A stretch of DNA of 58,787 nucleotides, counting the filler. It is 6 parts of 6 records of this genome, joined end to end, with 100 filler letters (N's around TTAATTAATTAA, not from the genome) between each part and the next. Parts side by side here need not be neighbours in the genome. Positions count along the whole stretch, not along the records: positions 1 to 15,948 come from SRR2962707_1513; 5 more parts are not named here. The stretch is one strand, 5' to 3'. The position numbers and the translations under genes are program-made. Shown here piece by piece: positions 1 through 50,035 of this stretch; position 1 is the first letter of the stretch; each line of letters begins with the position of its first letter. Below the pieces are notes generated by a model, which was not told where the DNA came from, searched no databases, and saw only the letters and a program-made list of their open reading frames with translations.

Positions 1-66
1 TTTTACGCTGACGCAGCATTTTCCACGCTGCGAGCGCATACAGCGAGAAAATCGGATTCACAGGTT

Positions 67-199
67 GGGTTCTCCCGGCACCTTAGCTGCGCTGATCACG
101 AGCGGCTGGTTCAGGAAACAGCGCCTTTCGCTGCAACGCACACAAACTGGTAAGACGCGGACTTTTTTGCCATTGGCAGCGCCAGCATGAACGGCAGCT
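67..199 (+). repeat. Cluster of three degenerate inverted-box units (cassette-boundary repeat family)
   Basis: Unit cores start at 81, 125 and 171 (period 44-46). 67-135 aligns without gaps to 930-998 (about 50/69 identical by hand count). Confidence 0.8.
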
Positions 200-252
200 A
201 CCAATTCTAACCTTTCAACAACTAGGCCGTTGATAGACCACATGACGAACGC

Positions 253-840
253 CTAGTACTGCTCGTTGGTTTCCACGTACGGCACCCCTGCATCGTTGAT
301 TTTTTCGGCCAGCCAAGACAGGCTGACACCAGAATACGAATGAAGCTGTATGGGGTCCTGAGAGTGAAAGTGAATCCAGTATTCGCGCTCATCGATATCT
401 TCATACTTTTCAATGGTCCTAAATTCTATCTGCTTTACGTCATTAAGCTGAACTTCAAACCCTTCTTCGTTCCCATGAGCGTGCCGAGGAACGCTCCAGA
501 CCAGAGCATGGTCTGAAAGCCGAAAATGCCACTCTCCGGTCGTAGAATATGCACGAACAGCAAATACGCATTCCTTCAACGACCCGTAGATTCCCGCTCC
601 AACGCATACGAAGCCGAAGACAGTCCCAATGCCCCAAGTTTCGACGGCTTCAAGGCTTAGCTCCATCACTGCGGTCTCTGGAACAAGCCGCATCCCAAAC
701 CAAATCAGGCCAACGGAGAGTAGCGGTACAACGATGAGTCGTCCTAAGTTCCGCCCTTTGACTGACCGTCGAACATCATAGTTTAAATTCCCTTGTCCGA
801 CTTCAGTCAATTTTTTCTCCGACCATGCGCTAATGTTCAT
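253..840 (-). CDS. Hypothetical membrane protein (two TM helices plus a soluble C-terminal domain), about 195 aa
   Basis: 3' part of ORF 253..1197. Start chosen at ATG 840 (MNISAW) because the upstream extension runs through the repeat cluster and overlaps the GST start. Two hydrophobic segments. Confidence 0.65.
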   Translation of the reverse strand: MNISAWSEKKLTEVGQGNLNYDVRRSVKGRNLGRLIVVPLLSVGLIWFGMRLVPETAVMELSLEAVETWGIGTVFGFVCVGAGIYGSLKECVFAVRAYSTTGEWHFRLSDHALVWSVPRHAHGNEEGFEVQLNDVKQIEFRTIEKYEDIDEREYWIHFHSQDPIQLHSYSGVSLSWLAEKINDAGVPYVETNEQY

Positions 841-929
841 AGATAGATATCTACCAATCGCACTGTCCAGATGGAACCCAGCCTGTTGGCTTTCCCGACG
901 TTGGAGCGAAACGCAGCATGGATTAACAT

Positions 930-1064
930 GGGCTCTTCTGGCACTTTCGCCGCATGATCCACGAACGACTGGTCTAGGATACTGTGCCTTTCGCTGCACG
1001 ACGCATGAATTGGCACAACGTGGGACAAAGCGAGCTTTCGCTGCGATTGCGCTAAAGACCGCTT
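930..1064 (+). repeat. Cluster of three degenerate inverted-box units
   Basis: CTTTCGCYGC cores at 944, 988 and 1035. Third unit is AAGCGAGCTTT...AAAGACCGCTT (inverted arms). Confidence 0.8.
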
Positions 1065-1179
1065 CCGTAAAGAGTGAAAAAATGGGTGTGACCGATCGAT
1101 AAATTACAACTAAGTGCGCAAAAATCTGGAAACCAACATGCTTCTTGAAATACTCGGTGGATTCAGGAAAGTTGGCTAG

Positions 1180-1800
1180 ATGAAATTGCTGGGGCACAAA
1201 AAGTCGATCAATGTCCGAAAAGTGCTTTGGACTTGCGTGGAGTTGGGGCTTTCACCGGAATGCGAGGACTGGGGTGGGGATTCCCAGCCAACGTCTGCGT
1301 CCGAGTTTCTTGGATTGAATCCAAAGGGTTTGATCCCTGTTTTGGTTGATGGGGACTTTGTGTTATCGGAATCCAATTCAATCTGCCGTTTTCTTGCCAC
1401 TTGCGAAGGCCGTTCAGACTTGTTGCCAACCACAGCAGTAGATCGCGCTTTGGTCGAATGTTGGATGGACTGGCAGATATCCGAATTGAATAGTGCTTGG
1501 CGGTACGCCTTCATGGGCCTTGTACGAAGGTCAGGGGACTTTGCCGATGTGGATGCTCAAACTGCAAGCATCCGATCATGGAATCATGCCATGACTTTGC
1601 TGGAAAAAAGACTATTTTTTACTGAATCTTATGTATGTGGCGAGAGCTTCACTCTTGCTGATATTGTGCTCGCGTTATCGACCAACCGTTGGGAGCTAAC
1701 GCCGATGGATCGGCCTGCCTTACCTGCCGTTGATGCTTGGATGGCCCGTATATCTTCGCGTCCCGGCTTTGTTGCGCATTGTCGCAACGGAGTAGCCTGA
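1180..1800 (+). CDS. Glutathione S-transferase (GstB-like)
   Basis: SINVRKVLW, LNPKGLIPVLVDG, ESNSI and FTLADI motifs; 206 aa. Confidence 0.92.
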   Translation: MKLLGHKKSINVRKVLWTCVELGLSPECEDWGGDSQPTSASEFLGLNPKGLIPVLVDGDFVLSESNSICRFLATCEGRSDLLPTTAVDRALVECWMDWQISELNSAWRYAFMGLVRRSGDFADVDAQTASIRSWNHAMTLLEKRLFFTESYVCGESFTLADIVLALSTNRWELTPMDRPALPAVDAWMARISSRPGFVAHCRNGVA

Positions 1801-1965
1801 CTAGCATAAATAGGAAGTAAAAAGACTGCCAGAGAAACTCGCCAACGTCATTGCGGTAGAGGGTGCTGTTGGAGCGCGGCCCCGTAGAACAGGTTGCTAT
1901 TTCTAAAAAGCAGGGTTCTTCCCTTTAGAACGGAGCAGGTGGTGGGCCTATACTCACATGAAACA

Positions 1966-2096
1966 CCCGAAGCGGCCGTTCACACGCTTCGCAGTATCAA
2001 GCAATTTGGGCTCAAAGCCGCCGTTAGCTGTGCCTACGAGCGGCACATGAGGCGGCTTGTCCATTCAATGCCTGCTGCGCGGACGAAGCGGACTTT
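1966..2096 (+). repeat. Cluster of inverted-box units
   Basis: CCCGAAGCGGCCGTT (1966), GGGCTCAAAGCCGCCGTTAGCTG (2008), AATGCCTGCTG-CGCGGACG-AAGCGGACTTT (2067-2096). Confidence 0.7.
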
Positions 2097-2175
2097 GGAA
2101 ACGCGTACAGACAAGATATCAAATCCATAACCATAGTCTTGCCACGGCGTAGACTAATATCGGGGAAAAAGTCAT

Positions 2176-2865
2176 TTGAAAGCCGCTGTATCGTTCATTG
2201 TTTTGGCTTTATGGATCAGCAGCTGGCTCCCGACGTCAGCTGATAGATGGGTCACTTATACCGTTGCTGGCCTCTTCGTTGGACTGGTCGTAGCTCTTCT
2301 TGTCCAAAGGATCCTTGGGGATCGCCACAGGCCAGCAAGAGCGGTTTCGGTACTCGGGTACATAGCTTTGATAGGCGGAGCGCTCTTGACCTTTTTGGTC
2401 AGAGCCGTCGGCACGCCAGTGGAGGGCGCAATCACGCTCTTCTTTGCTCTGGGGCTCGCGGGCTATGTCTTTTTGATCAGGGATATTTTGTCGCCCAGGC
2501 AAACCTCGAAAAGCCATCTTGGAACAGGATCTGTCATGCTTGTTCTGCTCTCCGCCTGGTCTTGGTCGTCGGCCTTGAGCATGTATTTCCACATCGGTTC
2601 GGCCAACGACACTGATGTTTCATGTATCCTTGTCCCCAAATCCCTTCGCTATGACACCGAGCTGAGCTCTGTCTGGGAAATGCGCCTTGCCGAAGTCGCG
2701 GAGAGCAACACCGGTCCGACCGGTACGGTCATTTTGGATTACCATGCGATACTCGTCGTACCCTCTGACGGACAAGCCGAGATTTATAACTGGTCAAAGA
2801 GGTGGATGCGCTTCGAACGTCTCGATATTAAACGCAACCCATATCTCCCGAGAGATTGCCCATAA
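2176..2865 (+). CDS. Hypothetical multipass membrane protein, 229 aa
   Basis: About five hydrophobic helices followed by a soluble C-terminal domain with two Cys; TTG start. Confidence 0.7.
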   Translation: MKAAVSFIVLALWISSWLPTSADRWVTYTVAGLFVGLVVALLVQRILGDRHRPARAVSVLGYIALIGGALLTFLVRAVGTPVEGAITLFFALGLAGYVFLIRDILSPRQTSKSHLGTGSVMLVLLSAWSWSSALSMYFHIGSANDTDVSCILVPKSLRYDTELSSVWEMRLAEVAESNTGPTGTVILDYHAILVVPSDGQAEIYNWSKRWMRFERLDIKRNPYLPRDCP

Positions 2866-2866
2866 T

Positions 2867-3013
2867 TCTGGTGGTTTTGGGCTCAGAGCGGACTTGCGGC
2901 GTCGGGACGAGGCTTGAAAAATGAGCGAGCCGCGTCGCCGGTCGATTTCGGCCCAAACCTGCCGTTGGCTACGACATCTCAATACTGCAGTCGCAGCCCG
3001 CATTGCCGTCATT
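2867..3013 (+). repeat. Cluster of inverted-box units starting immediately after the stop codon at 2865
   Basis: TTTGGGCTCAGAGCGGACTT (2876-2895); GGCCCAAACCTGCCGTT-N16-TACTGCAG (from 2950). Confidence 0.7.
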
Positions 3014-3075
3014 CACATCAGGTGTGGCATCTGAAACTGATCCAAGACACAGTCTACGGATTTAACGGTCGTTAG

Positions 3076-6000
3076 TTATCTTTTGGTATCGTTGTTCCAG
3101 CCAACTTGCTTCCAGTCATTGCCATCGAACCAAACGGCGCCTTCAGATCTTCGCCAACAGGACTCATTGTTGACGCCTCTAGGCCATGTGTTGCGCTCTG
3201 CAATCATTATCCAAACTGGTTCAATTGGGCTCTCTTCTGCGTACCGACGAAGCGTAGCCTCATCTATGACCACCGCTGTCTGATGACTCACTGGCCGTTG
3301 CGATTTCACAACCGTGTTTCCAGCACTGTCGATCCAGCACTGAGGTCCTTCGGAAGACATGGTCAGACCTAGTTCTTCCGCGAACCATTTTTGCGGCATG
3401 TAGTTTGTGAAGCCTTCGGGCAGTGTTTTGTCGAGATGGCTTTCCCAATGGTAGTGAGCAATGGGGATAGCAAACTCACAGTCAGACGGTGCCTTCCAAA
3501 TGTGCTGGTCAAATTTCACTGACTTCCAGGTCTCGCGCCAGAATGCCTCGCGCAAAAAGGGGCCATCAGTGAATTCTCGGGGTTGAAAGTCGTTAACACT
3601 CAGGCTCGCTTCAGCAGCAAGATAATCAGTGAAATCAGTGGCTTTCCCTTTCCTTACAAATACACAGTAGAAGAACCTGAACTCTTCATATCGTTTGCCG
3701 TGGTCACCAAGTCGCGGTTTTGCGTAGTCCGCTTCCGCCAGACTGAATTCGTAGAGCGCCAACCATCGTCTTTTGTTCTCATCCACTCGAACCAGTTTGT
3801 CCGAGATTGCTTGAGTGGGATCTTCGGTGAACGGCCACTCTTTCAGCTTTTCTTCAGCTACTTCCGGTAGCACGATCTGAGGTTCGGACATCCAGTCAAT
3901 GTTGGCTTGCGGTGAGGAGGGGTAACGGGTTGCAGTAGGCAGGATGGTGGGCTCGATATTTCGGCGAAACTCATGATGGCTGTACCGATACTGGTGTGGT
4001 CGCTCTGGCCAGCCCTCGAGGACCCAAAAATTGTCTGCCAACCTAGCTTGTAGCTCATCTAGAGCGATGCGCTGGTATTTCTTTCCTATGCGCTCAAGGT
4101 CGTTTTCGTGGCGTGAGTAACTTCCTCCCTGCCCATCATTTGGGAATAATTCTTCTGTCCATCCAAGTTCATAGGCTCGCTTAGTAATCCAGAGACGGCA
4201 CTGATGAACGCTGATTGTCTCGTAGTCACCGTGGCCCGCGGCATCGTCGAAATACTCATCAACTAATCGCCTCTGTTCTTCCGCATTTAGCAGTTCATTC
4301 AGTGCAGCAAGAGCGTCTTCCTTGCTGATTTCTTCATCGTTCTCCTCAATCTCAAGTTCGATAGTTTCCGTTTCCTCCTCCTCGCCCTGATCGTTAAGGG
4401 TCGTGCGCACAATCAAACCGAACGGTACGATTGATGCTTGTTCGTAGGCTTCAAGCGCTGCCGCTCTCTCCGGATAGGGATCAATAATCTCAGCTTTGAA
4501 ACGGTCTTTCACTTCCGACGCTGAGATAGGCTCGGGTTCAGAAAGTCGAGTGGTCAGGAAGCCACGCACTCGTCCTGGTATGCTGTACTTGCCGTAGTCA
4601 CCCCACTCACTCGACGCCGAGCTGAAGATTGATTTGCCGCCACGGCTATCTGCGATTTTCTCAACCTGCTCTTTTGTCAGGCCGAATATCGGCTCTTCAG
4701 AGCCGAAGGGATGGTAACAATTTTCGAGCTTTGCACCCGTTTCCAGGGCGTTTTTGTGCGATGCGAGTTCAACGATCCCCAGAGCATAATCCCTGGTCAT
4801 CAATGACACCGGCGGCGTACTTTCAGCAAAAGCCTTTGCGAAGATCAGGCTCGAGTATGTCCCGAGCCGCTCCACACTGGGATCGATACAGCAGGCTCCA
4901 AAAGCTGCTGCATAAAGCCTCTCAGCCACGTAGGGATCATTGCAGGAGTGCATTTCCTCAAAAACAAAGTCGAATACATCCGACTTGGTTAAGAACAGCG
5001 AAGTTAGCGCTTTGGTCGACCGATCTCGCAAAGTTATGTGGGACGACGACAAGGACCATGCGAGGATCAGAGAAGCCAACTCCATATGTCTGGCATCGGT
5101 TTTCCGGTCTTTTGTCGACATTGCCCAGGAGATGATGCGATCGATCTGGCTAAACTCCTCTCTGGACGCCCAGTTGATCCAGCTGGTCCAGTGACTGTCT
5201 CGTTCTGCCATCCCAAAGCTTTGGAGGTGCGCATTCAGAAACTTCGCATTGTACGGGTGGTCGATTGTGATCGACACGTCCAGCAGCAAGCCTTGAGGGT
5301 CGACAGAGTAACCGTCCAGAGTGTTGAGGAGGTCTCTAGCGTCATTTGTAAATGCCTCCAGCTTTCTCCATTTGAAGCTTTCGGCAAAACCCTGTTGAAG
5401 CGTACCGTCTTCCCAGTGTCTTTCCCAATCTGGCACCTCGATGGCGAACTCGGTGCCTAGTTTTTCTGGGTAGATCGTCGACAATGCGCCAATCAGTCCG
5501 GAGTATTCGTAACGTATCTGACGAAATGTGTCGCCTTCGTAGAAGAGGAAGTTCAGTGGCCCTCCAGCATTAAATTCCGCACCCGATTGCGAACGAGCCT
5601 TCTGAATGCCAATCCGCTCTAGGAGCTTCCGCCCCAGTCTAGTGATCGACCACGAATTGGCGCTAGCGGATGCCCTAGCCGCAACTACCTTTTCGGCCAA
5701 CGCGTCGGCCATAAGGTAGTCCTGAAAACGTTGAAAAGAGAACCTGATCAGCTCAGAAGGAGGGTTCAGCGGATCGATGTTCTTCGAGTAAGGAGGCGGA
5801 TCACGACGGAACAGGCTCGATTGAATGAAGACATCGAGCCATGATTTGCCTTCGGGTGCTTGGCGACTGCCAAACTGCTCGTGTGCAAGGTCACTGGCAA
5901 CCTCAAGTTCAACGAAATCTTGCCCATTGGCCGCCATGGCAGTCGCGATGCGTTGCACAAACCTCTTGAGCGATGATGACAAATCCTCAGGCCGAACAGA

Positions 6001-7680
6001 GCGAACACCAGTTCTGGAAGCGATCCCATCAAGGTAGAATGCCATTAATTCTGAAACGCCCTGCAGACCTCTTGGAAACTCTGACTCACCTCTTTCAAGA
6101 AGTGCTTCGCTTGTGGTCCTCAAGAAGAGTGGGTTGGTAAACTCGGGGGAGAGCCAAGGCGTGTTGGGGCGAGATATGCCCTTGTTGTCTAGATATTGGA
6201 TTGCGGCGCGTTCTCGTTCTTCAAGGCTGAAGAAGCCGTGCATGCTGAAGACGGGCACGGCTTTTAGTAAGTTTTCAGGAATTGCATACTTCGAGTAGAC
6301 ATCTCGGCAAGAAAAAACGGCAGCGATATATGGATATGGTCGTAGCGCATCGATGACTTGGGGTATCCAGTGCATCCAGTAGGTTGCGCCTGCTCCTTCG
6401 TTGATTGCGTCAAAGAAAAGGAGAGTCCTCTTTCCTTTCCTCGAACCTGCTGCGTCCAGGACACCTAGAATTTCATCTGAGGTCTTTGCTTCAAGCCCCA
6501 ATAGTCCGCCGAGTTGCGGCCAAAATGGAGCGTCAGACAAGTCTTGACCTAGTATTACGACTGTTGGCAAACCATCTTGGACACGTTGCGAAGCGGCTTG
6601 TCCTAGAGAATGTGATTTGCCTGAACCGGCTTCCCCAAGGACTATCGCAGACTTTGCGGTTTCTGCCGCCCAGTCACGTTGCCTGAGCGCATCGTCGAGA
6701 GTGGCAAGAGCCGTCTGAAGCTTACTCAGGCTATCTTTCACAACGGTGAACTTCTGCTTTTCGACCTCCTCTAGGCTTTTGCTATCGGTAGATGAGAATG
6801 GTCGTTCTAGTTTCCACGCAAGTTTGTGCAGCTCATCCAGCGTTTCTTTGGCCTTTGCCAAATTCCACTTTATCGTTGGTTCCTGATCGATGAGCGCCTG
6901 CATCTCAACAAGCTCGGACCAGAGTGATTGCGCTCCTGCCAAGACTTCGGGATCTGGTGCCAAAGGTGTTGTAGTAAACTCGATTGATGGAACTCTGTTG
7001 CTCGCCAAGAACGTAAAAGCATCATGAAGACGAGCACGTGATTTCGGCCCTCGGACGATAGCGTCAAACATTGCTTCGATTGATACTTCGACGTGATCTT
7101 CAGGGTTGAAACGGTCGTCTAGTTTTAATGTCGCCGCCTCGACTTGACTACTGAACCACGTGTCGTCCAGAACATCGCCGCCAAACCAAAAACGCTGCAA
7201 GGCGAGATTATCGTTTACGAGAAGCTTGTCATTGAGAACTGTCGCGCCCCAACATTCGAACTCAATCGAAATAGAACTCTTGGACGCCAGTGCTTTCCAA
7301 GTCGCAACGCGATCATCCCATTTTTCTTGTTGTGACTTGCCCTTCGCTTTTGGACCCCGCTTGGGAGTGAAGTCGAGCGGTAGAGCAAACACATACCTTT
7401 TGAGCTCCGGATGGGTCTTCAGCGCTTGCGCGACAGACTTGTCCATTTGCTTCCATTGAGTGTCGCCAAGAGTTTCAAAAAACTTCGACTGATAACCAAT
7501 CTTGTCGTCGTTATTTAGTAACCAGATAGCCTCAACACCACCATCGCCACCCCGGCCATCATTGGGCTGGAATTCATGAGCGTTTTCTGGTGGCTCCCTT
7601 CGCGCGAGAACCTTTACCAAAGCTTCAAACGAGTCCCGTCGTCCGGTTTCAAAGCCATTAATCTCTTGAAGGTTGATCAT
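3076..7680 (-). CDS. STAND/NACHT NTPase with N-terminal PD-(D/E)xK nuclease domain; AVAST (Avs2-like) anti-phage protein, 1534 aa
   Basis: N-terminal FEALV...GGDGGVE...GYQSKF nuclease signature; Walker A GEAGSGKS; Walker B LFFDAINE; NPLFL; C-terminal LRDRSTKAL, NDPYVAERL and ERIGKKYQRIA motifs. The subtype is my recognition, not a search result. Confidence 0.75.
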   Translation of the reverse strand: MINLQEINGFETGRRDSFEALVKVLARREPPENAHEFQPNDGRGGDGGVEAIWLLNNDDKIGYQSKFFETLGDTQWKQMDKSVAQALKTHPELKRYVFALPLDFTPKRGPKAKGKSQQEKWDDRVATWKALASKSSISIEFECWGATVLNDKLLVNDNLALQRFWFGGDVLDDTWFSSQVEAATLKLDDRFNPEDHVEVSIEAMFDAIVRGPKSRARLHDAFTFLASNRVPSIEFTTTPLAPDPEVLAGAQSLWSELVEMQALIDQEPTIKWNLAKAKETLDELHKLAWKLERPFSSTDSKSLEEVEKQKFTVVKDSLSKLQTALATLDDALRQRDWAAETAKSAIVLGEAGSGKSHSLGQAASQRVQDGLPTVVILGQDLSDAPFWPQLGGLLGLEAKTSDEILGVLDAAGSRKGKRTLLFFDAINEGAGATYWMHWIPQVIDALRPYPYIAAVFSCRDVYSKYAIPENLLKAVPVFSMHGFFSLEERERAAIQYLDNKGISRPNTPWLSPEFTNPLFLRTTSEALLERGESEFPRGLQGVSELMAFYLDGIASRTGVRSVRPEDLSSSLKRFVQRIATAMAANGQDFVELEVASDLAHEQFGSRQAPEGKSWLDVFIQSSLFRRDPPPYSKNIDPLNPPSELIRFSFQRFQDYLMADALAEKVVAARASASANSWSITRLGRKLLERIGIQKARSQSGAEFNAGGPLNFLFYEGDTFRQIRYEYSGLIGALSTIYPEKLGTEFAIEVPDWERHWEDGTLQQGFAESFKWRKLEAFTNDARDLLNTLDGYSVDPQGLLLDVSITIDHPYNAKFLNAHLQSFGMAERDSHWTSWINWASREEFSQIDRIISWAMSTKDRKTDARHMELASLILAWSLSSSHITLRDRSTKALTSLFLTKSDVFDFVFEEMHSCNDPYVAERLYAAAFGACCIDPSVERLGTYSSLIFAKAFAESTPPVSLMTRDYALGIVELASHKNALETGAKLENCYHPFGSEEPIFGLTKEQVEKIADSRGGKSIFSSASSEWGDYGKYSIPGRVRGFLTTRLSEPEPISASEVKDRFKAEIIDPYPERAAALEAYEQASIVPFGLIVRTTLNDQGEEEETETIELEIEENDEEISKEDALAALNELLNAEEQRRLVDEYFDDAAGHGDYETISVHQCRLWITKRAYELGWTEELFPNDGQGGSYSRHENDLERIGKKYQRIALDELQARLADNFWVLEGWPERPHQYRYSHHEFRRNIEPTILPTATRYPSSPQANIDWMSEPQIVLPEVAEEKLKEWPFTEDPTQAISDKLVRVDENKRRWLALYEFSLAEADYAKPRLGDHGKRYEEFRFFYCVFVRKGKATDFTDYLAAEASLSVNDFQPREFTDGPFLREAFWRETWKSVKFDQHIWKAPSDCEFAIPIAHYHWESHLDKTLPEGFTNYMPQKWFAEELGLTMSSEGPQCWIDSAGNTVVKSQRPVSHQTAVVIDEATLRRYAEESPIEPVWIMIAERNTWPRGVNNESCWRRSEGAVWFDGNDWKQVGWNNDTKR

Positions 7681-7866
7681 TTAAACTGATACCGATTCCG
7701 CTGATTAAAAATTCAATGTGAGGGTAGGCTCCCAAATGATCCAGTTAGACACGCCAGATTCCAGTCCCAGTCCATTTTTCATTAGAACAGTGTAGGTCTA
7801 AAACGCCAAGCAGCTTCTTGGAGATATCTTTTTGGTGCATTCGGCGTAGACTGTCCGAAGCTTTGG

Positions 7867-7995
7867 AATGTCCGCTCTGCCCTACGTGCATGGTAGCATT
7901 GCGAACGCAGCTAAAGTCCGGTTTCCGCCCCTTGTGCTGAACAGCGTGGACGGCCCGGAGCGAACATTGATACTAAGCCGGACTAAAGTCTGCAA
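7867..7995. repeat. Cluster of inverted-box units in both orientations
   Basis: AATGTCCGCTCTGCCC (7867) and CGCAGCTAAAGTCCGGTTTCCGCCC (7906-7930) are reverse copies. GGCCCGGAGCGAACATT-N16-AAAGTCTGC (7952-7993) is a forward copy next to the kinase stop codon. Confidence 0.7.
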
Positions 7996-7998
7996 AGG

Positions 7999-9243: not shown

Positions 9244-9249
9244 GGCGCG

Positions 9250-9942
9250 TTACTCCTTGACCAGAACATAGCCGATACCGCGTATGCTTTGAATAGGGGA
9301 ACGGCCGTGGTAGAATGTGCCGATCTTCTGGCGGATCGCTGACACATGCACATCGACAGCACGGTCATAAGACGCGATCGGGCGGCCAAGCCCCTGCAAC
9401 GACAGATCAGAGCGTGACACCGGTTTTCCGACCTGCGCGATCAGCACATCGAGAATATTGAACTCGACACCTGTAAGGGCGACGGGTGCGTCGTCCCAGG
9501 TGACGATGCGCCTCGCCCGGTCTATGACAAGCGGTCCTTCACTTTGCACACCCGCGCCCCCGCTGGTCGCCTCATCAACAATTTGGGTGCGCCTGAGGAT
9601 CGCGCGGATGCGGGCGGTCAGTTCGGCGGGCGAACACGGCTTGGCAAGGTAATCGTCCGCGCCAAGGTCCAGCCCCGCGATCCGGTCCGCTTCGTCTCCG
9701 CGGGCAGTCAGCATCAATACCGGAACAGCGCTTTCCGACCGGATGCGGTGCAGCACCTGAAGCCCGTTAACTTTCGGCATCATGATGTCGAGCACAACAA
9801 TGTCCGCCCGCGCATCCACGATGCGTCCAAAAGCCCGCTCGCCGTCTGCTGCAATTGCCACGCGGAATCCCTCCTGTTCAAGATACTCTCCCAGCAGGCC
9901 GGTCAGTTCGGTATCGTCGTCAATCAGCAGAATGGTTGTCAT
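9250..9942 (-). CDS. OmpR-family response regulator (CpxR-like)
   Basis: ILLIDDD, VLDIMMP, GADDYLAKP and IRGIGY motifs; start trimmed to MTTILL (ATG 9942). Confidence 0.93.
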   Translation of the reverse strand: MTTILLIDDDTELTGLLGEYLEQEGFRVAIAADGERAFGRIVDARADIVVLDIMMPKVNGLQVLHRIRSESAVPVLMLTARGDEADRIAGLDLGADDYLAKPCSPAELTARIRAILRRTQIVDEATSGGAGVQSEGPLVIDRARRIVTWDDAPVALTGVEFNILDVLIAQVGKPVSRSDLSLQGLGRPIASYDRAVDVHVSAIRQKIGTFYHGRSPIQSIRGIGYVLVKE

Positions 9943-10020
9943 AGCGCGAGCGTCCTTTTGCAGTGACCTTAACGCCAAAAATATCTTCGGATACCCAGCT
10001 TTTGATAACTTTGCAAAGAC

Positions 10021-10035
10021 TTAACACAACTTAAC
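10021..10035. promoter_or_regulatory. Tandem direct repeat TTAAC-N5-TTAAC, candidate OmpR/CpxR-type binding site
   Basis: 10-bp-period repeat in the divergent promoter between the regulator and the efflux operon; resembles the CpxR box TTTAC-N5-TTTAC. Confidence 0.5.
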
Positions 10036-10080
10036 ATCCCCCTGCTGCATACCGACGCAAATGCGTATCGGAGCGTGCGA

Positions 10081-11433
10081 ATGAAAACTGCCTTTGCCCT
10101 TCTTGGTGCCTGTGCGCTTGCCGGATGCAGCGTGTCGTTGATCCGGCCCGACGCGACGCAGGCCGTGGCGGCGCAATATGTCGCAGCGCAACCGGGCGGT
10201 GCTGCGCTCGACTTGGATTGGTGGTCCCGGATCGGTGATCCGCAATTGACCGAGGTGCTTGCGCTGTCCCGGACCCACAGTCCCGACCTGCGTAGTGCGG
10301 CGGCGAGCGTGATGTCCGCCCGCGCGCAGGCGGGTCAGAGCAGCGCCGATCTATACCCCCAAGTCACAGGTACGGCCTCTGCCTCCGCAAGTGAAACCGA
10401 GATCGAAGGCCGCTCCGACAGCAGTTCGACGTTGGTGGATGCAAGTTGGGAGATCGACCTTTTTGGCAAGCTGCGCAACACCGCCCGCGCGGCGAACGTG
10501 CGCGCCCGGGCCGAGGAAATCTCCTACGCCGGATCCTACGTTTCGCTCGCAGCAGCGGTCGCCAACGGCTACGTCGACTACCGCGCCTGCAAGCTGGCCG
10601 AAGCAGAATACCGTAGCGCCCTTGCTTCGCAGCAAGAAACCGTCACCGCGACGCGCAGCCTTGTGAACGCGGGGCTAAGCGCGTCCGCCGATCTGTCGCT
10701 GGCGCGCGCCAATGTGGCGAACGCGCAGATTAACCTCACAAGCCAGCGCGCCGATTGCAAGGTGGCGGCTCAGGCCCTCGCGCAAATTGTTGGCGTACCG
10801 CAAGGGCAGATCGACGCGACCCTCGCCAAGGGGGGCGGGCTGCCCGTCGCAAAGACGTTCCGGGTCGCTTCTGTGCCCGCCGACATGCTCCGCCAGCGGC
10901 CCGACGTGATCGAGGCGGAAAAGCGTTTCGCGGCCAAGCTGCTGGATCTGAAGGTGGCTCAGGCGAACCTTTATCCCTCAATGACCCTCGACGGCAGCGT
11001 CACGGCCGTAGGCTCATCTTCTTGGTCTTTCGGCCCTGCATTGTCGCTGCCGATCGTCGACGGAGGCGCGTCACGCGCCGCCGTTCGCATGTCAAATGCA
11101 GACGCCCTGGTCGCGGCCGAGACCTATCGCTCGACCGTTCTGACTGCAGTGTCCGAAGTTGACGGGGCTCTGACCCACCTCGCCGCCGCCCGCGCGAACC
11201 TGAGCAGCGCGGAAAGCCTCGTGCAGCAGTATCAGGCCTATTTCAACGCGATCGATGAAGACTGGCGGGCCGGTGGCACCTCGCTGCTCGACCGCGAAGA
11301 CGCCCGCCGCCAGGTGCAATCGGCTCGGATCACCCGCATCAGCCAGCGCAAGGCGATGCTGGTGCAATGGATCACGCTTTACAAGGCAGTCGGCGGTGGC
11401 TGGGTGCCACCTGCGGCTGCCGTTCCCAGTTAG
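10081..11433 (+). CDS. RND efflux outer-membrane lipoprotein (NodT/OprM/TolC family)
   Basis: Lipobox ALAGC, ASWEIDLFG, LRQRPDV and LYKAVGGGW; GGAG RBS before ATG 10081. Confidence 0.92.
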   Translation: MKTAFALLGACALAGCSVSLIRPDATQAVAAQYVAAQPGGAALDLDWWSRIGDPQLTEVLALSRTHSPDLRSAAASVMSARAQAGQSSADLYPQVTGTASASASETEIEGRSDSSSTLVDASWEIDLFGKLRNTARAANVRARAEEISYAGSYVSLAAAVANGYVDYRACKLAEAEYRSALASQQETVTATRSLVNAGLSASADLSLARANVANAQINLTSQRADCKVAAQALAQIVGVPQGQIDATLAKGGGLPVAKTFRVASVPADMLRQRPDVIEAEKRFAAKLLDLKVAQANLYPSMTLDGSVTAVGSSSWSFGPALSLPIVDGGASRAAVRMSNADALVAAETYRSTVLTAVSEVDGALTHLAAARANLSSAESLVQQYQAYFNAIDEDWRAGGTSLLDREDARRQVQSARITRISQRKAMLVQWITLYKAVGGGWVPPAAAVPS

Positions 11434-11448
11434 ATTGAAGGCTTTCAC

Positions 11449-12603
11449 ATGACCGGAAAACGCGAACTTCTTCTCGGCGGCATCGCCGCTGCTGCTCTCG
11501 TGGGTATTGGCATGTTCATCCTGCCTATGATCGGAGGAGACGTGGCCCCCGCAGAAGCCTCCGCTGAGGCCCCACTAAGTGCGGCGGCGCTGACTGTGGC
11601 CGTGACCACGCCCCAGACCGACGTTTGGCCAGTCGAAGTTCGGGCGAATGGCTGGCTGGCCCCTTGGCAGGAAGTGGTGATCTCTGCCCAAGTCGGTGGA
11701 CAGATGATCGAAACTGTCAACGCCGACGTGGGCGAGACTGTGGGCAAGGATGATGTTCTCAGCGCGTTCTCGCGCGGGTCGTTGGAGAACGACATTCTGC
11801 AATTGGACGCGTCCCTTGAATCTGCACGAGCGTCTTTGGAACTTGCCACAGCCGATGCGGACCGTGCGCGCAAGCTGAGCAGCGGCAGCGCGATTTCCCA
11901 GCAGCAGGCCACCGAATATCTCTCGACGGAGCGCAAGGCGAAGGCGGATGTGTCCTCTGCTGAAGCGCAGCTCGCCTCGGCTCAGCTTGACCTTGATCAT
12001 ACCGAAGTGAGAGCCGTGACCGGCGGTGTTGTTTTGTCCCGCAGTGCGGCCGTCGGCGACGTGGTAAGCGCGGGTGCGGAGCTGTTCCGCCTCGTGCGTG
12101 ACGGGCGTGTCGAGTGGCAGGCCGAGGTGCCGCTGAACCAGTTGCGCAACATCGAGCTTGGCACCCCTGTCGCCGTCCCCACGCCGCTTGGTTATATTTT
12201 TGGCGAGGTGCGCCGCATTTCCGCCTCGGTCTCGGAAAGCAACGGGCGGGTGATTGTCTATGTTTCGCTGACGCCACCCGACGACACGGTGCAGCCTAAG
12301 ACGGGCATCATGATCTCGGGCGTCTTCAAGGTCGGTGAACGCGAGGCGCTGTCAGTGCCCTCGTCCTCAGTGGTGATGCAGGACGGATTTTCCTACGTCT
12401 TTACGCTGGAAGAAGGCGAAACGACCACGGTATCCCGTATCCGGGTTCAGACCGGCAGACGGCAAGACGACCAAGTGGAAATTACCAGCGATCTGTCCCC
12501 CGATGCACAGGTGGTGCGGGCGGGTGGCGCATTCCTGTCCGATGGGTCGGTTGTGCGGGTGTCCGCTGCGGGCGAAGAACCCAAAGTGGAGGCAAAGCCA
12601 TGA
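11449..12603 (+). CDS. RND efflux periplasmic adaptor (MFP)
   Basis: N-terminal anchor, lipoyl half-motifs, helical hairpin, GGAFLSDG; ATGA overlap with the permease. Confidence 0.92.
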   Translation: MTGKRELLLGGIAAAALVGIGMFILPMIGGDVAPAEASAEAPLSAAALTVAVTTPQTDVWPVEVRANGWLAPWQEVVISAQVGGQMIETVNADVGETVGKDDVLSAFSRGSLENDILQLDASLESARASLELATADADRARKLSSGSAISQQQATEYLSTERKAKADVSSAEAQLASAQLDLDHTEVRAVTGGVVLSRSAAVGDVVSAGAELFRLVRDGRVEWQAEVPLNQLRNIELGTPVAVPTPLGYIFGEVRRISASVSESNGRVIVYVSLTPPDDTVQPKTGIMISGVFKVGEREALSVPSSSVVMQDGFSYVFTLEEGETTTVSRIRVQTGRRQDDQVEITSDLSPDAQVVRAGGAFLSDGSVVRVSAAGEEPKVEAKP

Positions 12604-15600
12604 ACTTCTCCGCATGGTCCATCAAGAATCCCGTTATACCCATCCTTGCCTTTGTCCTTTTGACCATCACAGGACTGATGGCGTTTAACAGGCTGGACAT
12701 CCAGAATTTCCCCGACATGTCGCTGCCGACGATCTCGATTGCAGCCAGCCTCGACGGCGCGGCGGCAGCACAGCTTGAGACCGAGGTCGCGCGCAAGATC
12801 GAGGATCAGCTGACCGGATTATCGCAGCTTGATTCAGTGACGACCACGATCACCGACGGGTCAGTCAGCATTTCCGTCGCCTTCGAGGTAGGCAAGGACG
12901 TGCAGGTCGCGGCAGACGAAGTCCAATCTGCTGTGGATCAGTCGCAAAGCGATCTGCCCTCTGACATGAACGCCCCCACAGTGTCCAAGTCCACCCTTTC
13001 TGGTGGACCGCTGATCACTTATGTCGTCAGCTCGGACAAGCTCGACGACGCGGAACTGAGTTGGTTTATCGACAACGGCTTCAAACGCGCGCTCATGTCC
13101 GTCGATGGTGTCGGCGAGGTCGGCCGGCTTGGAGGCGTAGATCGCGAGATCCAGGTGGAGCTGAATCCGCTGCTGCTGAGCGGGCTCGGCCTTTCTACTG
13201 CAGACGTGAACGCTCAGCTTGACGACGTGCAGCGCGATCTGTCGGGTGGCAAGGCTGAAATCGGCAATGAATCGCAATCTGTCCGTGTCCTCGCGGCGTC
13301 GGAAAGCGTCGAAGACCTGCGCGCCCTCCCGATCCCACTGCCCAATGGCAGCTGGGTGCGGCTGGACGAGTTGGGGACAGTCACCGACACTTTTTCCGAT
13401 CTGTCCTCCCTTGCCTACCTTGATGGAAAGCCAGTCATCGCAGCGCAAATCAAGCGTCTGACCGGCTATTCTGACATCGTCGTGACCGAAAACACGCGCG
13501 AAGCTGTCAAGGAATTCGCCGCTGAAAATCGCCAAGTCATAATCAGCGAAGGCTACAACACGATCCTGCCCGCCGAGCAGAACTACTCTGCGTCGATGGA
13601 CATGCTTTACGAGGGCGCGGTGATTGCCGTGATCGTGGTTTTCCTATTCTTGATGGATTGGCGCGGCACTCTGCTGGCCGCCATTGCGCTGCCGTTGTCG
13701 ATCATCCCCACGTTTCTTATAATGGACTTTCTTGGCTACTCGCTGAACACCGTTACGCTGCTTGCCCTGTCGCTGGTGGTCGGTATTCTGGTGGATGACG
13801 CCATTGTCGAAGTCGAAAATATCGAACGGCACATGCACATGGGCAAACCCGCCTATGAGGCCTCGATTGAAGCTGCCGACGAGATTGGTCTGGCCGTTAT
13901 AGCCACCACGTTCACTCTGATCGCCGTGTTCCTTCCGACGGCATTCATGGGTGGAATCATCGGCATTATCTTCAAGCAGTTCGGCATCACGGCCTGCGTT
14001 GCAGTGTTCTTTTCGCTGCTGGTGGCGCGGTTCGTCACGCCGATGATGGCCGCCTACATGATGAAGGCGAAACCCATCGAAGAAGAAAAAGACGGCATCC
14101 TGATGCGCAGCTACATGTCCGTGATCCGCGGATCGTTGCGGCATCGCTGGGTCCCCGTCATTGGGGTGCTCGCATTCTTTGGGTTGACGATCGTGATGCT
14201 GGGTCAGTTGTCCACCGGCTTCTTCCCGGCCTCCGACGACAGTCAGACGCAAGTCACGATCACTACTGCGCCGGGCACGACGATCGAGGAAACCGATGCT
14301 GTGTCGCGCCAAGTCTCCAGCGCACTGGTCGGCGTCGATCACGTAATGGCTGTGTTTCAGGCTACCGGGTCGGCATCAAGCGGCGGCATGGGCGATGGCG
14401 GCACCACCAGTTCCGTCACTTCGGCGACCATCGTGGTCGACCTGACCAACATCGACGACCGAGATGTCTCCCAGACCGATATCGAGGCGGAGATTCGCAG
14501 CGCGGTCGAGGTCATTCCCGGTGCACGGATTGAGGTCGGCTCGGGCGGCAACGGCACGCAGCTTCAAATCACGATGGCCGGAGACAACTCAGAAACGTTG
14601 GAACAGGCCGCAAGCAATCTTGGTGATGAAATCAGGGCTAGCATCGCGGGCATCGGCAATGTGACCTCATCGGCTTCCATGCAGTCGCCCGAAATTGTCA
14701 TTACGCCCGACCTCGACCGTGCGGCATCCTACGGGGTGACATCGCGCGCGATCTCCAACGCGATCCGGGTTGCCACGTCGGGTGCCTACGATTCCGCGCT
14801 ATCGCAGTTGAACCTGCCCGAACGACAAGTCCCGATCCGGGTGACCCTCGCTGAACAAGCACGCCAGAGCCTGGACCAGATCAAGCTTATCCCAGTCGCA
14901 GGATCAGCCGGCAACGTGACGCTGGGCGCGATTGCCGAGATCTCGCTCGGCTCCTCTCCCTCCGAGATCAAGCGCCTTGACCGTTCGCGCAACGTCTCTG
15001 TCACGATAGAGTTGAACGGCCGCCCCCTGTCGGACGTCAACCGCGAGGTAGCACAACTGGACGGGTATCAGAATCTGCCGTCCAACGTCCATTTCGTTGA
15101 ACAGGGCGACCTGAAACGTCAGTCCGAGCTGTTCACAAACTTCGCCACGGCGATGGCGCTTGGTATCTTCTGCGTCTACGCTGTGCTGGTTATTCTATTT
15201 GGAGACTTCCTACAGCCGATAACGATCCTTATGGCGTTGCCTTTGGCGCTTGGCGGCGCGTTGTTTCCGCTGGTCATCACCGGCACCAGCTTTTCGATGC
15301 CGGCGGTCATTGGATTGTTGCTGCTGATGGGGATCGTGTCGAAGAACTCGATCCTGCTGGTGGACTATGCGCTGGTAGCCCGACAAGGCGGCATGGACCG
15401 GTTTGATGCCATGGTAGACGCATGCCATAAGCGCGCCCGCCCCATCATCATGACTACGGTCGCCATGTCCTGCGGCATGCTGCCCGCAGCACTGAGCTTT
15501 GTCGAAGGGGATCCAAGCTTCCGCCAACCGATGGCGACCGTGGTTATAGGCGGGCTGGTAACGTCTACGGTGCTGAGCCTCGTTGTTATCCCGGTTGTCT

Positions 15601-15680
15601 ATACGTTCATCGACGACTTCGAATTATTTGTGGTTCGCAGGTTTCGGAAGCAAGCGAAGACTTTGAGCGAATTGGCTTAA
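12600..15680 (+). CDS. RND efflux permease (AcrB/AcrD/AcrF family), 1026 aa
   Basis: GILVDDAIVEVENI, KNSILLVD and RARPIIMT motifs. Confidence 0.95.
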   Translation: MNFSAWSIKNPVIPILAFVLLTITGLMAFNRLDIQNFPDMSLPTISIAASLDGAAAAQLETEVARKIEDQLTGLSQLDSVTTTITDGSVSISVAFEVGKDVQVAADEVQSAVDQSQSDLPSDMNAPTVSKSTLSGGPLITYVVSSDKLDDAELSWFIDNGFKRALMSVDGVGEVGRLGGVDREIQVELNPLLLSGLGLSTADVNAQLDDVQRDLSGGKAEIGNESQSVRVLAASESVEDLRALPIPLPNGSWVRLDELGTVTDTFSDLSSLAYLDGKPVIAAQIKRLTGYSDIVVTENTREAVKEFAAENRQVIISEGYNTILPAEQNYSASMDMLYEGAVIAVIVVFLFLMDWRGTLLAAIALPLSIIPTFLIMDFLGYSLNTVTLLALSLVVGILVDDAIVEVENIERHMHMGKPAYEASIEAADEIGLAVIATTFTLIAVFLPTAFMGGIIGIIFKQFGITACVAVFFSLLVARFVTPMMAAYMMKAKPIEEEKDGILMRSYMSVIRGSLRHRWVPVIGVLAFFGLTIVMLGQLSTGFFPASDDSQTQVTITTAPGTTIEETDAVSRQVSSALVGVDHVMAVFQATGSASSGGMGDGGTTSSVTSATIVVDLTNIDDRDVSQTDIEAEIRSAVEVIPGARIEVGSGGNGTQLQITMAGDNSETLEQAASNLGDEIRASIAGIGNVTSSASMQSPEIVITPDLDRAASYGVTSRAISNAIRVATSGAYDSALSQLNLPERQVPIRVTLAEQARQSLDQIKLIPVAGSAGNVTLGAIAEISLGSSPSEIKRLDRSRNVSVTIELNGRPLSDVNREVAQLDGYQNLPSNVHFVEQGDLKRQSELFTNFATAMALGIFCVYAVLVILFGDFLQPITILMALPLALGGALFPLVITGTSFSMPAVIGLLLLMGIVSKNSILLVDYALVARQGGMDRFDAMVDACHKRARPIIMTTVAMSCGMLPAALSFVEGDPSFRQPMATVVIGGLVTSTVLSLVVIPVVYTFIDDFELFVVRRFRKQAKTLSELA

Positions 15681-15701
15681 CCGCTCGAATGGGTATCCTC
15701 C

Positions 15702-15739
15702 GAGCCGCCGTTTGTTCACGCTGGAGCAAACGGCTGCTC
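15702..15739. repeat. Single inverted-box unit after the RND operon
   Basis: GAGCCGCCGTT-N16-AACGGCTGCTC; same arm type and 16-nt spacing as the other clusters; no U-tract. Confidence 0.65.
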
Positions 15740-15948
15740 TCGGCCGCACACCAGCTGCTCGACGACACTGTGACGCTGCGGGCCCACCCGTCAGAGAGGG
15801 GCATTACTTGCAACTTAGAAACTAGGCAGTGGCATATTGCCGCACCCGCGCAACATCTTTCTATCGCTGCTCTCGCGCGGTTGCCGATTTTTAAACCTAT
15901 CCCCCCAACAGGATACAACCAATGAAACGCAAAATACTCTTCTGGCCA

Positions 15949-42662: not shown

Positions 42663-42820
42663 AAAATAATTTAATCCATTTCGACGTAGAACTTTTCAAG
42701 ATACTCAGGACAGGCTCTGGGAATAAAACCCACAATGCGGGATTAAAGCATATTCTTTAAACAACAAAAAAGCTGCCTAAATATCTAGACAGCCTTATTT
42801 TATTTATATAAATGATTTGA

Positions 42821-43336: not shown

Positions 43337-43615
43337 AATACTTTTCTTTATTATTTAATACGCTTTATATCAATTATTTACAAATAAATATACTGAATTT
43401 TATAGTTTTTAACCTTCATAAATTTATTTAGTTCTTATAAAATCAATACTAATGCCAAAACTATACATCTATTCTACCTCCTCTTATGACATATATCATA
43501 TATATAATCATTGTATTAATTAGTTGAGGAAACTCCTTAAAATTTATCGACAATCAATATCCTTAAAAATTAATGAATAACAGTTTATAAATACTCTTAG
43601 AAAAAAATGAAGCTC

Positions 43616-44788: not shown

Positions 44789-44843
44789 AAATTAATTCAT
44801 TGTAAAACAATAGCAAAATCAAATTTTAATTTATGGAACTCTC

Positions 44844-45734: not shown

Positions 45735-45765
45735 TTTTTTACATTTTAGATTAATGCTTAATTAT

Positions 45766-47111: not shown

Positions 47112-47127
47112 CTATATTTTAGAGGAT

Positions 47128-49068: not shown

Positions 49069-49086
49069 AATAGTAGTTGGTTTTGG

Positions 49087-50010: not shown

Positions 50011-50035
50011 GAAATTTTGTTTTGAGGTTTTTGGT

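Follow-up and report, generated by a model that had tools for sequence, protein, structure and literature searches.

At the start of this stretch of DNA, unrelated accessory genes follow one another in a row, separated by intergenic clusters of short repeats. Are these clusters the sites through which the genes were captured, and if so, by which enzyme? The window, i.e., the whole stretch of 58,787 nucleotides that was analysed, consists of six joined contigs, and positions 1-15948 were analysed as contig 1. A preliminary description had read six clusters on contig 1 as recombination sites of a pdif- or integron-like gene-capture platform. The parts of that reading that stand are the repeats at module borders, the breakpoints and the link to a recombinase; compensatory arm changes find no support, folded sites are unlikely, and an IntI was not found. 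The repeats belong to a family conserved on plasmids and islands of marine Roseobacter, and our results suggest that it serves a gene-capture system which resembles integrons and has not been described before.

Contig 1 carries a repeat family

From the window sequence alone, the repeat signal is weak. Sequence is present at all six places where clusters had been described, but the only significant similarity among the six intergenic stretches is that between 54-140 and 920-1005 (90 nt, 75.6%, E 1e-10), and 15702-15739 is a self-palindrome. TRF showed no tandem array in these stretches, and their fold z-scores were between -1.21 and +0.26, except for 1960-2105(+) (-1.77) and 15690-15750(+) (-2.61). 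The grammar first proposed for all clusters, AAGCGGACNTT-N16-AANGTCCGCTT, does not hold literally, as the window has a single good full instance of it, at 1028-1064 (17/20 specified bases and 9/11 arm pairs).

A unit HMM trained on 15 first units from other genomes, without any window sequence, finds significant units at 929-980 (E 1e-7), 66-117 (E 1.3e-4), 15738-15702 (E 0.004), 1027-1068 (E 0.008), and 2007-2034 (E 0.0096), which supports a real repeat family on contig 1. Neither five mononucleotide-shuffled versions of contig 1 nor the remaining five contigs gave a match better than E 3.6. The motif is absent from the other five contigs, as described before, yet this is no control, because these contigs probably come from other organisms, given their G+C range of 0.32 to 0.62 and the T9SS/CHU_C proteins encoded on contig 5. 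That all six clusters form one family could be confirmed for four of them (clusters 1, 2, 3, and 6), in each of which one or more units are significant. In clusters 4 and 5, the pieces are degenerate: the unit HMM gives E 5.7-26, a box-plus-arm pattern chosen post hoc matches at 2879-2896, 2949-2966, and 7930-7913, and a reversed core fragment lies at 2985-3020.

Grammar and spread of the sites

Each site consists of a core of about 160 nt followed by units of about 46 nt. A unit comprises a 7-nt G-rich box (TGGGCTC or a variant), an arm of about 12 nt ending in TT, 16 nt starting with CGCYGC, and an 11-nt arm, AAnGnCnGnTn. The TT-N16-AA spacing proved real, being strictly kept by 14 of 24 first units. 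In these 14 strict units both arms follow one consensus, inverted relative to each other, which gives arm-box-arm the 11-7-11 layout of a core site for tyrosine recombinases; the consensus (11-nt arm, 7-nt box, 11- to 12-nt arm) agrees with the two 11-bp arms around a 6- to 8-nt spacer of pdif/Xer modules. The compensatory arm changes that had been claimed find no support, since pairing within units (5.79/11) is no better than that between units (6.23; permutation P = 0.95, n = 14). Nor is a fold conserved in the core (RNAalifold, -7.8 kcal/mol, 1/14 pairs covarying), and it has no 3-nt periodicity. Both results make folded, attC-like sites unlikely. The arms look like half-sites for a protein, unlike hairpins. 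There is an internal dyad symmetry in the core, a perfect inverted repeat of 11 to 12 nt with its copies 113 to 115 nt apart.

The core HMM gave 24 matches at E <1e-14, in 22 of the 23 sequences searched. We found the core in 31 plasmid records, every one from Rhodobacterales, and in 9 of 61 sampled genomes with one to four copies each; a unit query gave one or two weak matches in 8 of the 61. The family is therefore not a REP, as its copy number is low and its occurrence patchy, and the even spread that would have spoken against gene capture was not seen. A Y1 transposase (PF01797) is encoded in five of the 61 genomes, and G338 is the only core-bearing one among them, so that there is no RAYT link; a Y2 transposase is present in three of the nine core-bearing genomes. 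Searches against Rfam 15 returned a single chance IRES match for contig 1 (E 0.76) and none at E up to 10 for the core region of locus L098. Of 23 sequences scanned, 4 (contig 1, L100, L120, and L125) show the order core, gene, unit(s), gene, and the same units border unrelated genes in different genera. Units are about 55 to 80% alike, with few runs longer than 12 to 14 nt.

Organization of contig 1

Contig 1 opens with the right half of a core, truncated by the contig end (2-72, plus strand; core HMM positions 91-161, E 6.6e-16). It carries the terminal G-rich box TTGGGTTC and is 70 to 89% identical to noncoding Roseobacteraceae plasmid DNA. Cluster 1 (66-199, plus strand) consists of the first post-core unit (66-117) and two degenerate units, and is homologous to 920-1005. 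The first cassette is an orphan membrane open reading frame (ORF) (253-840, minus strand) without a Pfam family; the similarity of 54-140 to 920-1005 lies in its flanks, with direct box-plus-arm copies at 64-83 and 928-946. Cluster 2 (920-1068, plus strand), a degenerate core end and three units (929-980, 985-1009, and 1027-1068, the middle one at E 0.41), is 83.7% identical to L098 over 104 nt. It is followed by the second cassette, a glutathione S-transferase gene (1180-1800, plus strand; Pfam GST_N and GST_C), the best relatives of which are 65 to 66% identical. In cluster 3 (1966-2098, plus strand), with box TTTGGGCTC at 2005-2013, contigs of sequencing run X4 end at 2008, 2084, 2088, and 2097, and the depth is 180 versus about 8 nearby. 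The third cassette, again an orphan membrane ORF (2176-2865, plus strand), lies between 14-nt direct box repeats (2005-2018 and 2876-2889, 92.9% identical), and in run X2 its contig has a depth of 14.4 where the neighbours have 8.7 and 10.1.

Cluster 4 (2876-3020, plus strand), recognized by pattern matches, has its box-plus-arm copies at 2879-2896 and 2949-2966 and, at 2985-3020, a reversed motif of the left half of the core that also occurs in L100, in L101, and downstream of recombinase genes, in their 3' flanks. The Avs2 module (2947-7930, minus strand) has inverted box-plus-arm ends and is common to metagenome contig L095 and run X4. Its gene (3076-7680) matches the PADLOC Avs2 models over the full length at E 0 (PDLC02161, 1,344 bits; PDLC02164, 1,072 bits over residues 2-1531). 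Cluster 5 (7857-7995, minus strand) consists of degenerate reversed units; its box plus arm at 7930-7913 matches the pattern with 0 mismatches, and the unit HMM matches in the cluster are weak (E 5.7-17). A two-component system and RND efflux operon follows (7999-15680; Pfam; G+C about 0.60). As noted before, this module is free of units (best unit HMM match, E 5.8), and two clusters adjoin stop codons, at 2865 and 7999. A solitary palindromic unit (15702-15738, fold z-score -2.6) lies 22 nt past the RND stop codon. The genes of the array run in both directions, and none of the nine ORFs of contig 1 encodes a recombinase, in line with the earlier observation that the window lacks one.

Synteny breaks coincide with the boxes

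In four independent comparisons, synteny between relatives breaks at boxes, and boxes border unrelated accessory modules, as the preliminary description had led us to expect. The Avs2 module is shared with L095 (blastn, 85% over 2948-4852 and 91% over 5211-7930) with unrelated flanks, and run X4 contigs cover 2949-7930. It ends at 2946/2947 and 7930, immediately outside the boxes TCGGCCC and GGGCGGA. Plasmids pP36_d and pP54_d share an 11.36-kb module at 97.7% identity, versus 66 to 73% for their backbones; it ends past the arm of the first unit at one side and within a GGAC box at the other. Target site duplications were absent from its ends in both plasmids (four ends), and the tips of the two ends differ.

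In the closed Phaeobacter plasmids M633 and M636, identity falls at a box, and a 971-nt single-gene isochorismatase cassette is present in M636, not in M633. Its flanks, CAGCCAGCCCAA and CAGCCAGCCCGA, read as the reverse complement of the box. The 12-nt direct repeat on either side of the cassette is thus no target site duplication but the conserved box. The same difference is equally explicable as a replication slippage deletion between the 12-nt direct repeats, which we count against box-specific recombination. Run X2 shows a population branch with two alternative continuations past 2893. The breakpoints (2893, 2947, 3040, 7911, and 7930) are spread across some 20 nt around the boxes and do not share a single fixed base. 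Most of the compared loci came to light through the repeat itself, so that the sample is subject to ascertainment bias; the Avs2 comparison alone did not depend on the repeat.

A small tyrosine recombinase is linked to the box

A tyrosine recombinase encoded outside the window is indeed linked to the boxes. It has 210 amino acids and only the catalytic domain (Pfam Phage_integrase, residues 45-195), and a box lies just upstream of its gene in 14 of 22 copies examined. A conserved leader of about 100 nt adjoins TGGGCTC (at most 1 mismatch) in five of the six copies on plasmids and 9 of the 16 in genomes, while five of these 16 have no upstream box. In pP30_b, two of three cores have a recombinase gene within 110 nt. 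Recombinase genes occur in 8/9 core-bearing genomes versus 15/52 without a core (Fisher's exact test, P = 0.0011), which could stem from shared plasmid load or phylogeny. Core-bearing G325 lacks the gene, and G317 and G318, which also bear cores, hold fragments only. The genes are multicopy and often broken. The distribution of the recombinase family extends well beyond that of the core, with 165 plasmid records, among them Rhizobiales, Burkholderiales, and Pseudomonas. Most cores have no recombinase within 6 kb, any one protein family is shared by at most 3 of 22 loci, and core and recombinase gene do not keep a constant orientation relative to each other. The protein scores 24.3 and 22.7 bits with the IntI model TIGR02249 (cutoff, 265) and 20 to 23 bits with the tyrosine-type DNA invertase model NF007371 (cutoff, 222).

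Interpretation and alternatives

The best reading of these sequences, to which we give about an even chance, is box-specific cassette recombination with the 210-aa recombinase acting in trans. The enzyme, with its catalytic domain only, would bind the arms on double-stranded DNA, and strand exchange would occur at or beside the box. Two direct boxes would recombine to release a cassette as a circle, exchange between the box of a circle and an array box would insert it, and inverted boxes would invert the segment between them. The recombinase's own gene would usually be the first "cassette" behind a box. Positions 1-8000 may be a mosaic in which cassettes of one gene or one module each (orphan, GST, orphan, and Avs2) are joined into an array by a lineage-specific family of noncoding sites, and which belongs to the mobile DNA of a marine member of the Rhodobacterales. 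We count against this reading that the recombinase is mostly far from the cores and wider than the core, that the breakpoints are scattered, and that the orientation is variable.

Less probable, but to be taken seriously, is that the repeats are passive, selfish or structural, and dispersed without a dedicated enzyme, offering short homology for RecA-dependent recombination, slippage, or template switching. The scatter of breakpoints in and around units would fit, as would the 12-nt direct repeats around the 971-nt difference, a classic deletion substrate, and the many cores without an adjoining recombinase. However, homologous recombination would work poorly on units of such low identity and with such short common runs, most of the recombinase gene copies examined are fused to a box, and invariant arm positions are kept in the 11-7-11 geometry. 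Inverted core pairs could also mobilize the DNA between them as a nonautonomous, MITE-like element through a transposase encoded elsewhere. We consider this improbable: the 11.4-kb and Avs2 modules do have inverted core or unit ends, the family is low copy and patchy, and the core has its dyad symmetry, but the four module ends lack target site duplications, the two end tips are unalike, the boxes flanking cassettes are direct instead of inverted, and neither Y1 nor Y2 transposases accompany the core in most genomes.

Slightly less probable still is that the clusters are regulatory or insulating protein-binding arrays (operators, terminators, or nucleoid-protein sites) that travel with accessory genes and coincide with breakpoints only because they are intergenic. 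Arms that behave as double-stranded half-sites, clusters both upstream and downstream of genes, and the terminator-hairpin-like unit at 15702-15738, directly past an operon, agree with such a role. The breaks, however, occur at boxes and not anywhere across intergenic regions of 300 to 900 nt, the identical kind of unit borders unrelated genes across genera, and the hairpins are not followed by a T run. A classical system, either integron attC sites (CALIN) or Xer-dependent pdif modules, is very improbable. Cassette-sized genes with imperfect palindromes between them, inverted sites around two modules, and an array without a recombinase are what it would predict, but the linked recombinase is not an IntI and the arms are conserved by sequence, not structure.

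With box-specific cassette recombination as the preferred reading, a wider view is tentatively put forward here, and we would sooner doubt than assert it: marine Rhodobacterales might have a third gene-cassette platform beside integrons and pdif, in which a minimal 210-aa recombinase works on double-stranded arm-box-arm sites, with its own gene as a cassette behind the 160-nt core, and through which single genes as well as larger modules, the anti-phage gene Avs2 and detoxification genes among them, are shuffled between plasmids, chromids, and islands. If true, this platform would occupy the niche held by integrons in other Proteobacteria; integrons are not known from Alphaproteobacteria.

Comparison with known systems

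Integron, REP, and MITE assignments agree poorly with these results. The IntI-type integrase beside attI that marks an integron was found neither among the contig 1 ORFs nor in the linked recombinase, which speaks against an integron or CALIN. For attC, the paired arms, and all but one of the core pairs, do not change together. For REP/BIME with RAYT, the copy number is too low and the cognate Y1 transposase is in one of nine core-bearing genomes. For a MITE or DDE transposon, the 11.4-kb module lacks matching terminal inverted repeats with a target site duplication.

The arrays resemble integron arrays in that small, mostly single-gene cassettes of unrelated function stand in a row, separated by imperfectly palindromic sites of 50 to 140 nt, in that the array begins at a conserved platform sequence with a tyrosine recombinase gene beside the primary site, and in that a cassette gained or lost has the repeated site on both sides. 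Unlike in integrons, the recombinase has 210 aa and only the catalytic domain, far below the IntI model, and is usually unlinked to arrays, the sites are conserved in sequence without compensatory pairing, the genes point both ways, and the 160-nt core stands alone in many places.

The pdif modules of Acinetobacter carry inversely oriented XerC/XerD sites on plasmids, with 11-bp arms around a 6- to 8-nt spacer. The recombinase-less Avs2 and 11.4-kb modules, bounded by inverted sites, are like them, as is the movement between unrelated plasmid backbones. A canonical dif-like pattern gave no more matches than its reversed control (four versus nine) in three Rhodobacteraceae genomes, and the arms appear unlike anything from that search. 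The units here are also tandem, with a second spacing of 16 nt, a large core, and a dedicated small recombinase linked to them. REP/BIME/REPIN elements with RAYT are intergenic, imperfectly palindromic units of about 40 nt in clusters, which the present units resemble; the present family differs in having one to four core copies in 9 of 61 genomes and zero to two weak unit matches per genome, and in the near absence of the Y1 transposase.

FimB/FimE-type and other small tyrosine recombinases have about 200 aa. The recombinase described here is similar in size, has the catalytic domain only, and matches NF007371 weakly. It differs from them in scoring far below the cutoff of that model, in its multicopy, often broken genes, and in being tied to cassette borders and not to one invertible promoter.

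RESULTS

Contig 1 (positions 1 to 15948) carries an orphan open reading frame (ORF; 253 to 840, minus strand), a GST gene (1180 to 1800, plus), a second orphan ORF (2176 to 2865, plus), an Avs2 gene (3076 to 7680, minus; PADLOC PDLC02161, 1344 bits), a histidine kinase gene (7999 to 9243, minus), a response regulator gene (9250 to 9978, minus), and an OMF/MFP/RND efflux operon (10075 to 15680, plus). In a search of 301 Alphaproteobacteria, the top identity of the RND protein was 55%. The two orphan proteins were compared with each other and rejected as paralogues. The G+C content is about 0.50 over positions 1 to 8000 and about 0.60 beyond. For contigs 1 to 6, which make up the 58,787 bases of the window and are separated by N-linkers beginning at 15949, 27487, 35953, 42563, and 50790, it is 0.55, 0.62, 0.62, 0.53, 0.32, and 0.50, respectively. 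Contig 5 (42663 to 50789) probably belongs to an organism other than that of contig 1, because it encodes DUF11/CHU_C T9SS and OmpA/PD40 proteins, and more than one organism may be present in the assembly or bin. The use of the other five contigs as a repeat-free control in the preliminary description is invalid, given their G+C range (0.32 to 0.62) and the probable foreign origin of contig 5. At the end of contig 4, a tandem repeat (42322 to 42562; 60-nt period, 3.9 copies, 78% matches) lies within or beside a 961-amino-acid ORF (39633 to 42518) that has no Pfam family.

The repeats consist of a conserved element of about 160 nt (the core) and units of about 46 nt behind it. Judged from the window alone, the repeat signal is weak. 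Among the six intergenic clusters of contig 1 (66 to 199, 920 to 1068, 1966 to 2098, 2876 to 3020, 7857 to 7995, and 15702 to 15738), the only significantly similar pair is 54 to 140 and 920 to 1005 (90 nt, 75.6%, E 1e-10). TRF found no tandem arrays at the clusters, their folds were unremarkable by z-score, and the literal two-arm grammar had a single good instance (1028 to 1064). In the intergenic DNA, which totals 1,858 nt, the words CGGACTT and CTTTCGC occur four times each; coding DNA has neither. A unit HMM derived from 15 units, all external to the window, gave five matches with E < 0.01 in contig 1, in clusters 1, 2 (two matches), 3, and 6; on the other contigs and on shuffled sequences, no match was better than E 3.6. 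In clusters 4 and 5, a pattern chosen post hoc finds box and arm pieces; a reversed core fragment is also present. Within the Avs2 module, the gene is flanked by a separate 10-nt inverted repeat, ACAGTCTACG and CGTAGACTGT (3046 to 3055 and 7843 to 7852). Upstream of the ORF at 2176, CGTAGACT occurs for a third time (2146 to 2155); in all, this word has three intergenic and no coding occurrences.

Outside the window, clusters 1 and 2 matched noncoding plasmid DNA of Sulfitobacter, Phaeobacter, Leisingera, Roseicitreum, and Paracoccus at 70 to 89% identity (distant blastn of positions 1 to 8000 against 72,556 plasmids). With the Sulfitobacter copy as the query, we found 36 places in 31 plasmid records, all from Rhodobacterales, with one or two places per record. 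The repeat is present in 9 of the 61 genomes sampled (the family around genome G002), with one to four copies each. Alignment of the copies yielded the core, which terminates in TTGGGCTC. The core HMM matches 22 of the 23 sequences searched (E 1e-15 to 1e-44), and positions 2 to 72 of the window correspond to HMM positions 91 to 161 (E 6.6e-16); the metagenome contig L095 gave no match. In two comparison loci (L098 and L113), the core shows a perfect inverted repeat of 11 to 12 nt, 113 to 115 nt apart, which is the dyad symmetry of these loci. No homologue of the repeat was found at 80 loci of GST relatives (best, a 20-nt match, E 0.002), and the four genomes behind these loci gave chance-level DNA matches only, the top one being 83% over 46 nt (E 0.0016) in an unrelated context. 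No close plasmid relative was found for the array at locus L100. In the freely accessible literature, main texts only, we found no publication on this repeat family or system.

In a unit, a 7-nt box is followed by a 12-nt arm with TT at its end, then by 16 nt beginning with CGCYGC, and then by an 11-nt arm of the form AAnGnCnGnTn. This strict grammar is obeyed by 14 of 24 first units, and therefore the TT-N16-AA spacing and the period of about 46 nt put forward in the preliminary description are correct for the family. The suggested tyrosine-recombinase geometry also stands, as the box has 7 nt and the arms of 11 to 12 nt are inverted copies of one consensus. The proposed compensatory arm changes did not hold up: pairing was 5.79 of 11 positions within units versus 6.23 between units (P = 0.95), with no covariation. 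The arms thus resemble half-sites for a protein on double-stranded DNA rather than the stems of hairpins. The core is noncoding and without a conserved fold. It lacks a 3-nt periodicity, RNAalifold gave -7.8 kcal/mol with 1 of 14 pairs covarying, and there was no Rfam match in contig 1 or in the core region of L098. An RNA or single-stranded DNA fold was rejected on the fold z-scores, RNAalifold, and Rfam, and a coding remnant on the absent periodicity and the stop codons in the frames. The low copy number, the patchy spread, and the scarcity of Y1 transposases (5 of 61 genomes and just one of the nine core-bearing genomes) rule out a REP element. Y2 transposases occur in three of these nine genomes, and HUH enzymes were rejected as partners on the distribution of both types.

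The search that led to the Avs2 comparison started from the Avs2 protein and made no use of the repeats. L095 (G+C about 0.43) has an Avs2 copy 91% identical to that of the window, and its DNA homology with contig 1 is restricted to 2948 to 4852 and 5211 to 7930, with unrelated flanks. The module ends just outside TCGGCCC-AAACCTGCCGTT and, on the opposite strand, GGGCGGA-AACCGGACTTT, which are box-plus-arm sequences inverted relative to each other. Contigs of sequencing run X4 share the identical span (2949 to 7930), and those of run X7 share 3040 to 7911, with a core-like flank. The L095 Avs2 copy (10001 to 14211) is probably a pseudogene, because it is split into three ORFs and lacks about 358 nt corresponding to 4852 to 5211 of the window. 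Its neighborhood includes a resolvase, an HNH protein, a DUF5906 protein, and an integrase-like gene.

Breaks at boxes were also seen in closed genomes. The Phaeobacter plasmids pP36_d and pP54_d have backbones that are 66 to 73% identical and share an 11,360-nt module that is 97.7% identical. One end has a full core and first unit, with homology ending past the arm; at the other end, an inverted, diverged core runs up to a GGAC box. The module shows no target-site duplication. The sequences compared between Phaeobacter inhibens M633 and M636 are 98.9% identical as far as the core and differ in gene content beyond it. M636 has a 971-nt insert carrying one isochorismatase gene, flanked by CAGCCAGCCCAA (12165 to 12176 of locus L144) and CAGCCAGCCCGA (13136 to 13147), both the reverse complement of the box. 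Together with the Avs2 module, these comparisons uphold the view that boxes mark module borders. In contig 1, each orphan cassette lies between direct repeats of the box (2005 to 2018 and 2876 to 2889, 14 nt at 92.9%; 54 to 140 and 920 to 1005). In run X2, which holds a fraction of 0.96 of the sampled words, 2860 to 2893 is common to two contigs that then diverge, and the contig over 2079 to 2889 has a depth of 14.4, its neighbors having 8.7 and 10.1. The shares of runs X5, X6, and X8 to X20 were small. The order core, gene, unit(s), gene was found in 4 of the 23 sequences scanned (contig 1, L100, L120, and L125).

The Phaeobacter plasmids carry other elements as well. On pP54_d, a defense-type island (7403 to 14110 of L115) directly behind a core and first unit encodes an ABC-three-component system, a serine recombinase, a helicase, a methyltransferase, and a TnsA N-terminal-domain protein. 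A nonautonomous shell (L139, 4873 to 16692; L142, 8850 to 11828; L132, 13838 to 16282) has TGTCAGG...GACA ends, several subterminal repeats, and a duplication of 5 bp, GCTCG. The site it occupies, upstream of ardC, is vacant in both Thioclava p4 and Roseovarius pTHAF9_d, and its cargo varies (the 11.4-kb module, SulP and USP, or TetR and MFS). A repeat of about 250 nt, from a family distinct from the core, has five copies in the leading region of pP36_d (record positions 24549 to 24784, 37953 to 38185, 44402 to 44638, 47013 to 47269, and 50009 to 50249 of L131/L132), where they precede ardC-like, ssb-side, and DUF3560 genes, and two copies in pP54_d. The annotation of pP36_d also lists a gene for a class A beta-lactamase together with aph(6)-Id and aph(3'')-Ib (26125 to 33814 of L132), adjoining transposase (Tn3 family) and serine recombinase genes.

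Two of the three cores on plasmid pP30_b lie within 110 nt of a gene for a 210-amino-acid tyrosine recombinase, which is a candidate enzyme for the system. The protein consists of the catalytic domain only (PF00589 at residues 45 to 195) and matches Xer-type and invertase models far below their cutoffs. Upstream of its start codon, a conserved leader (about 100 nt) adjoins TGGGCTC, often with a core end. Of the six plasmid copies, five have this junction, and the sixth has a reversed core. Of the 16 genomic copies, 9 have it with at most one mismatch, 2 carry a variant box, and 5 lack a box upstream. The stop codon is followed by a hairpin and a reversed motif of the left half of the core, the same as that at 2985 to 3020 of the window. 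The recombinase family occurs in 23 of the 61 genomes, namely, 8 of 9 with the core versus 15 of 52 without it (Fisher P = 0.0011), an association that may be confounded by plasmid load. It is far broader than the core (165 plasmid records, several orders), and many copies are broken; an intact one lies in L160. When 22 cores were searched to a distance of 6 kb, no gene family was common to most of them. Elsewhere, on pP92_f, three consecutive tyrosine recombinase genes (4623 to 7806 of L142) interrupt an ardC-like gene.

DISCUSSION

In the best-supported model, to which we give about an even chance, these elements form a cassette system working like integrons or pdif modules, in which a minimal recombinase would act in trans on the system's own sites; all of the catalysis is what we infer. 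The main rival, recombination at passive repeats, appears rather unlikely to us. It would account for the scattered breakpoints, and the 971-nt difference between M633 and M636 can be read as slippage, but the poor homology between units speaks against it, as does a recombinase gene fused to a box.

Roseobacters are abundant, culturable, plasmid-rich marine bacteria. If the small recombinase uses the boxes for crossover, Roseobacters have a cassette-capture system of their own. Such a system would account for gene movement between backbones that are just 66 to 73% identical, and the genes moved would include those for defense (Avs2 and the ABC-three-component system), detoxification, and transporters. 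The core and unit models would then provide a sequence signature of cassette borders in marine metagenomes. Natural before-and-after states are present in the closed genomes of Phaeobacter P30, P36, P54, M633, and M636, and therefore the idea can be tested directly at the bench. As a cassette system, it would resemble both integrons and pdif modules, and it would differ from each of them in having its own sites and a minimal recombinase.
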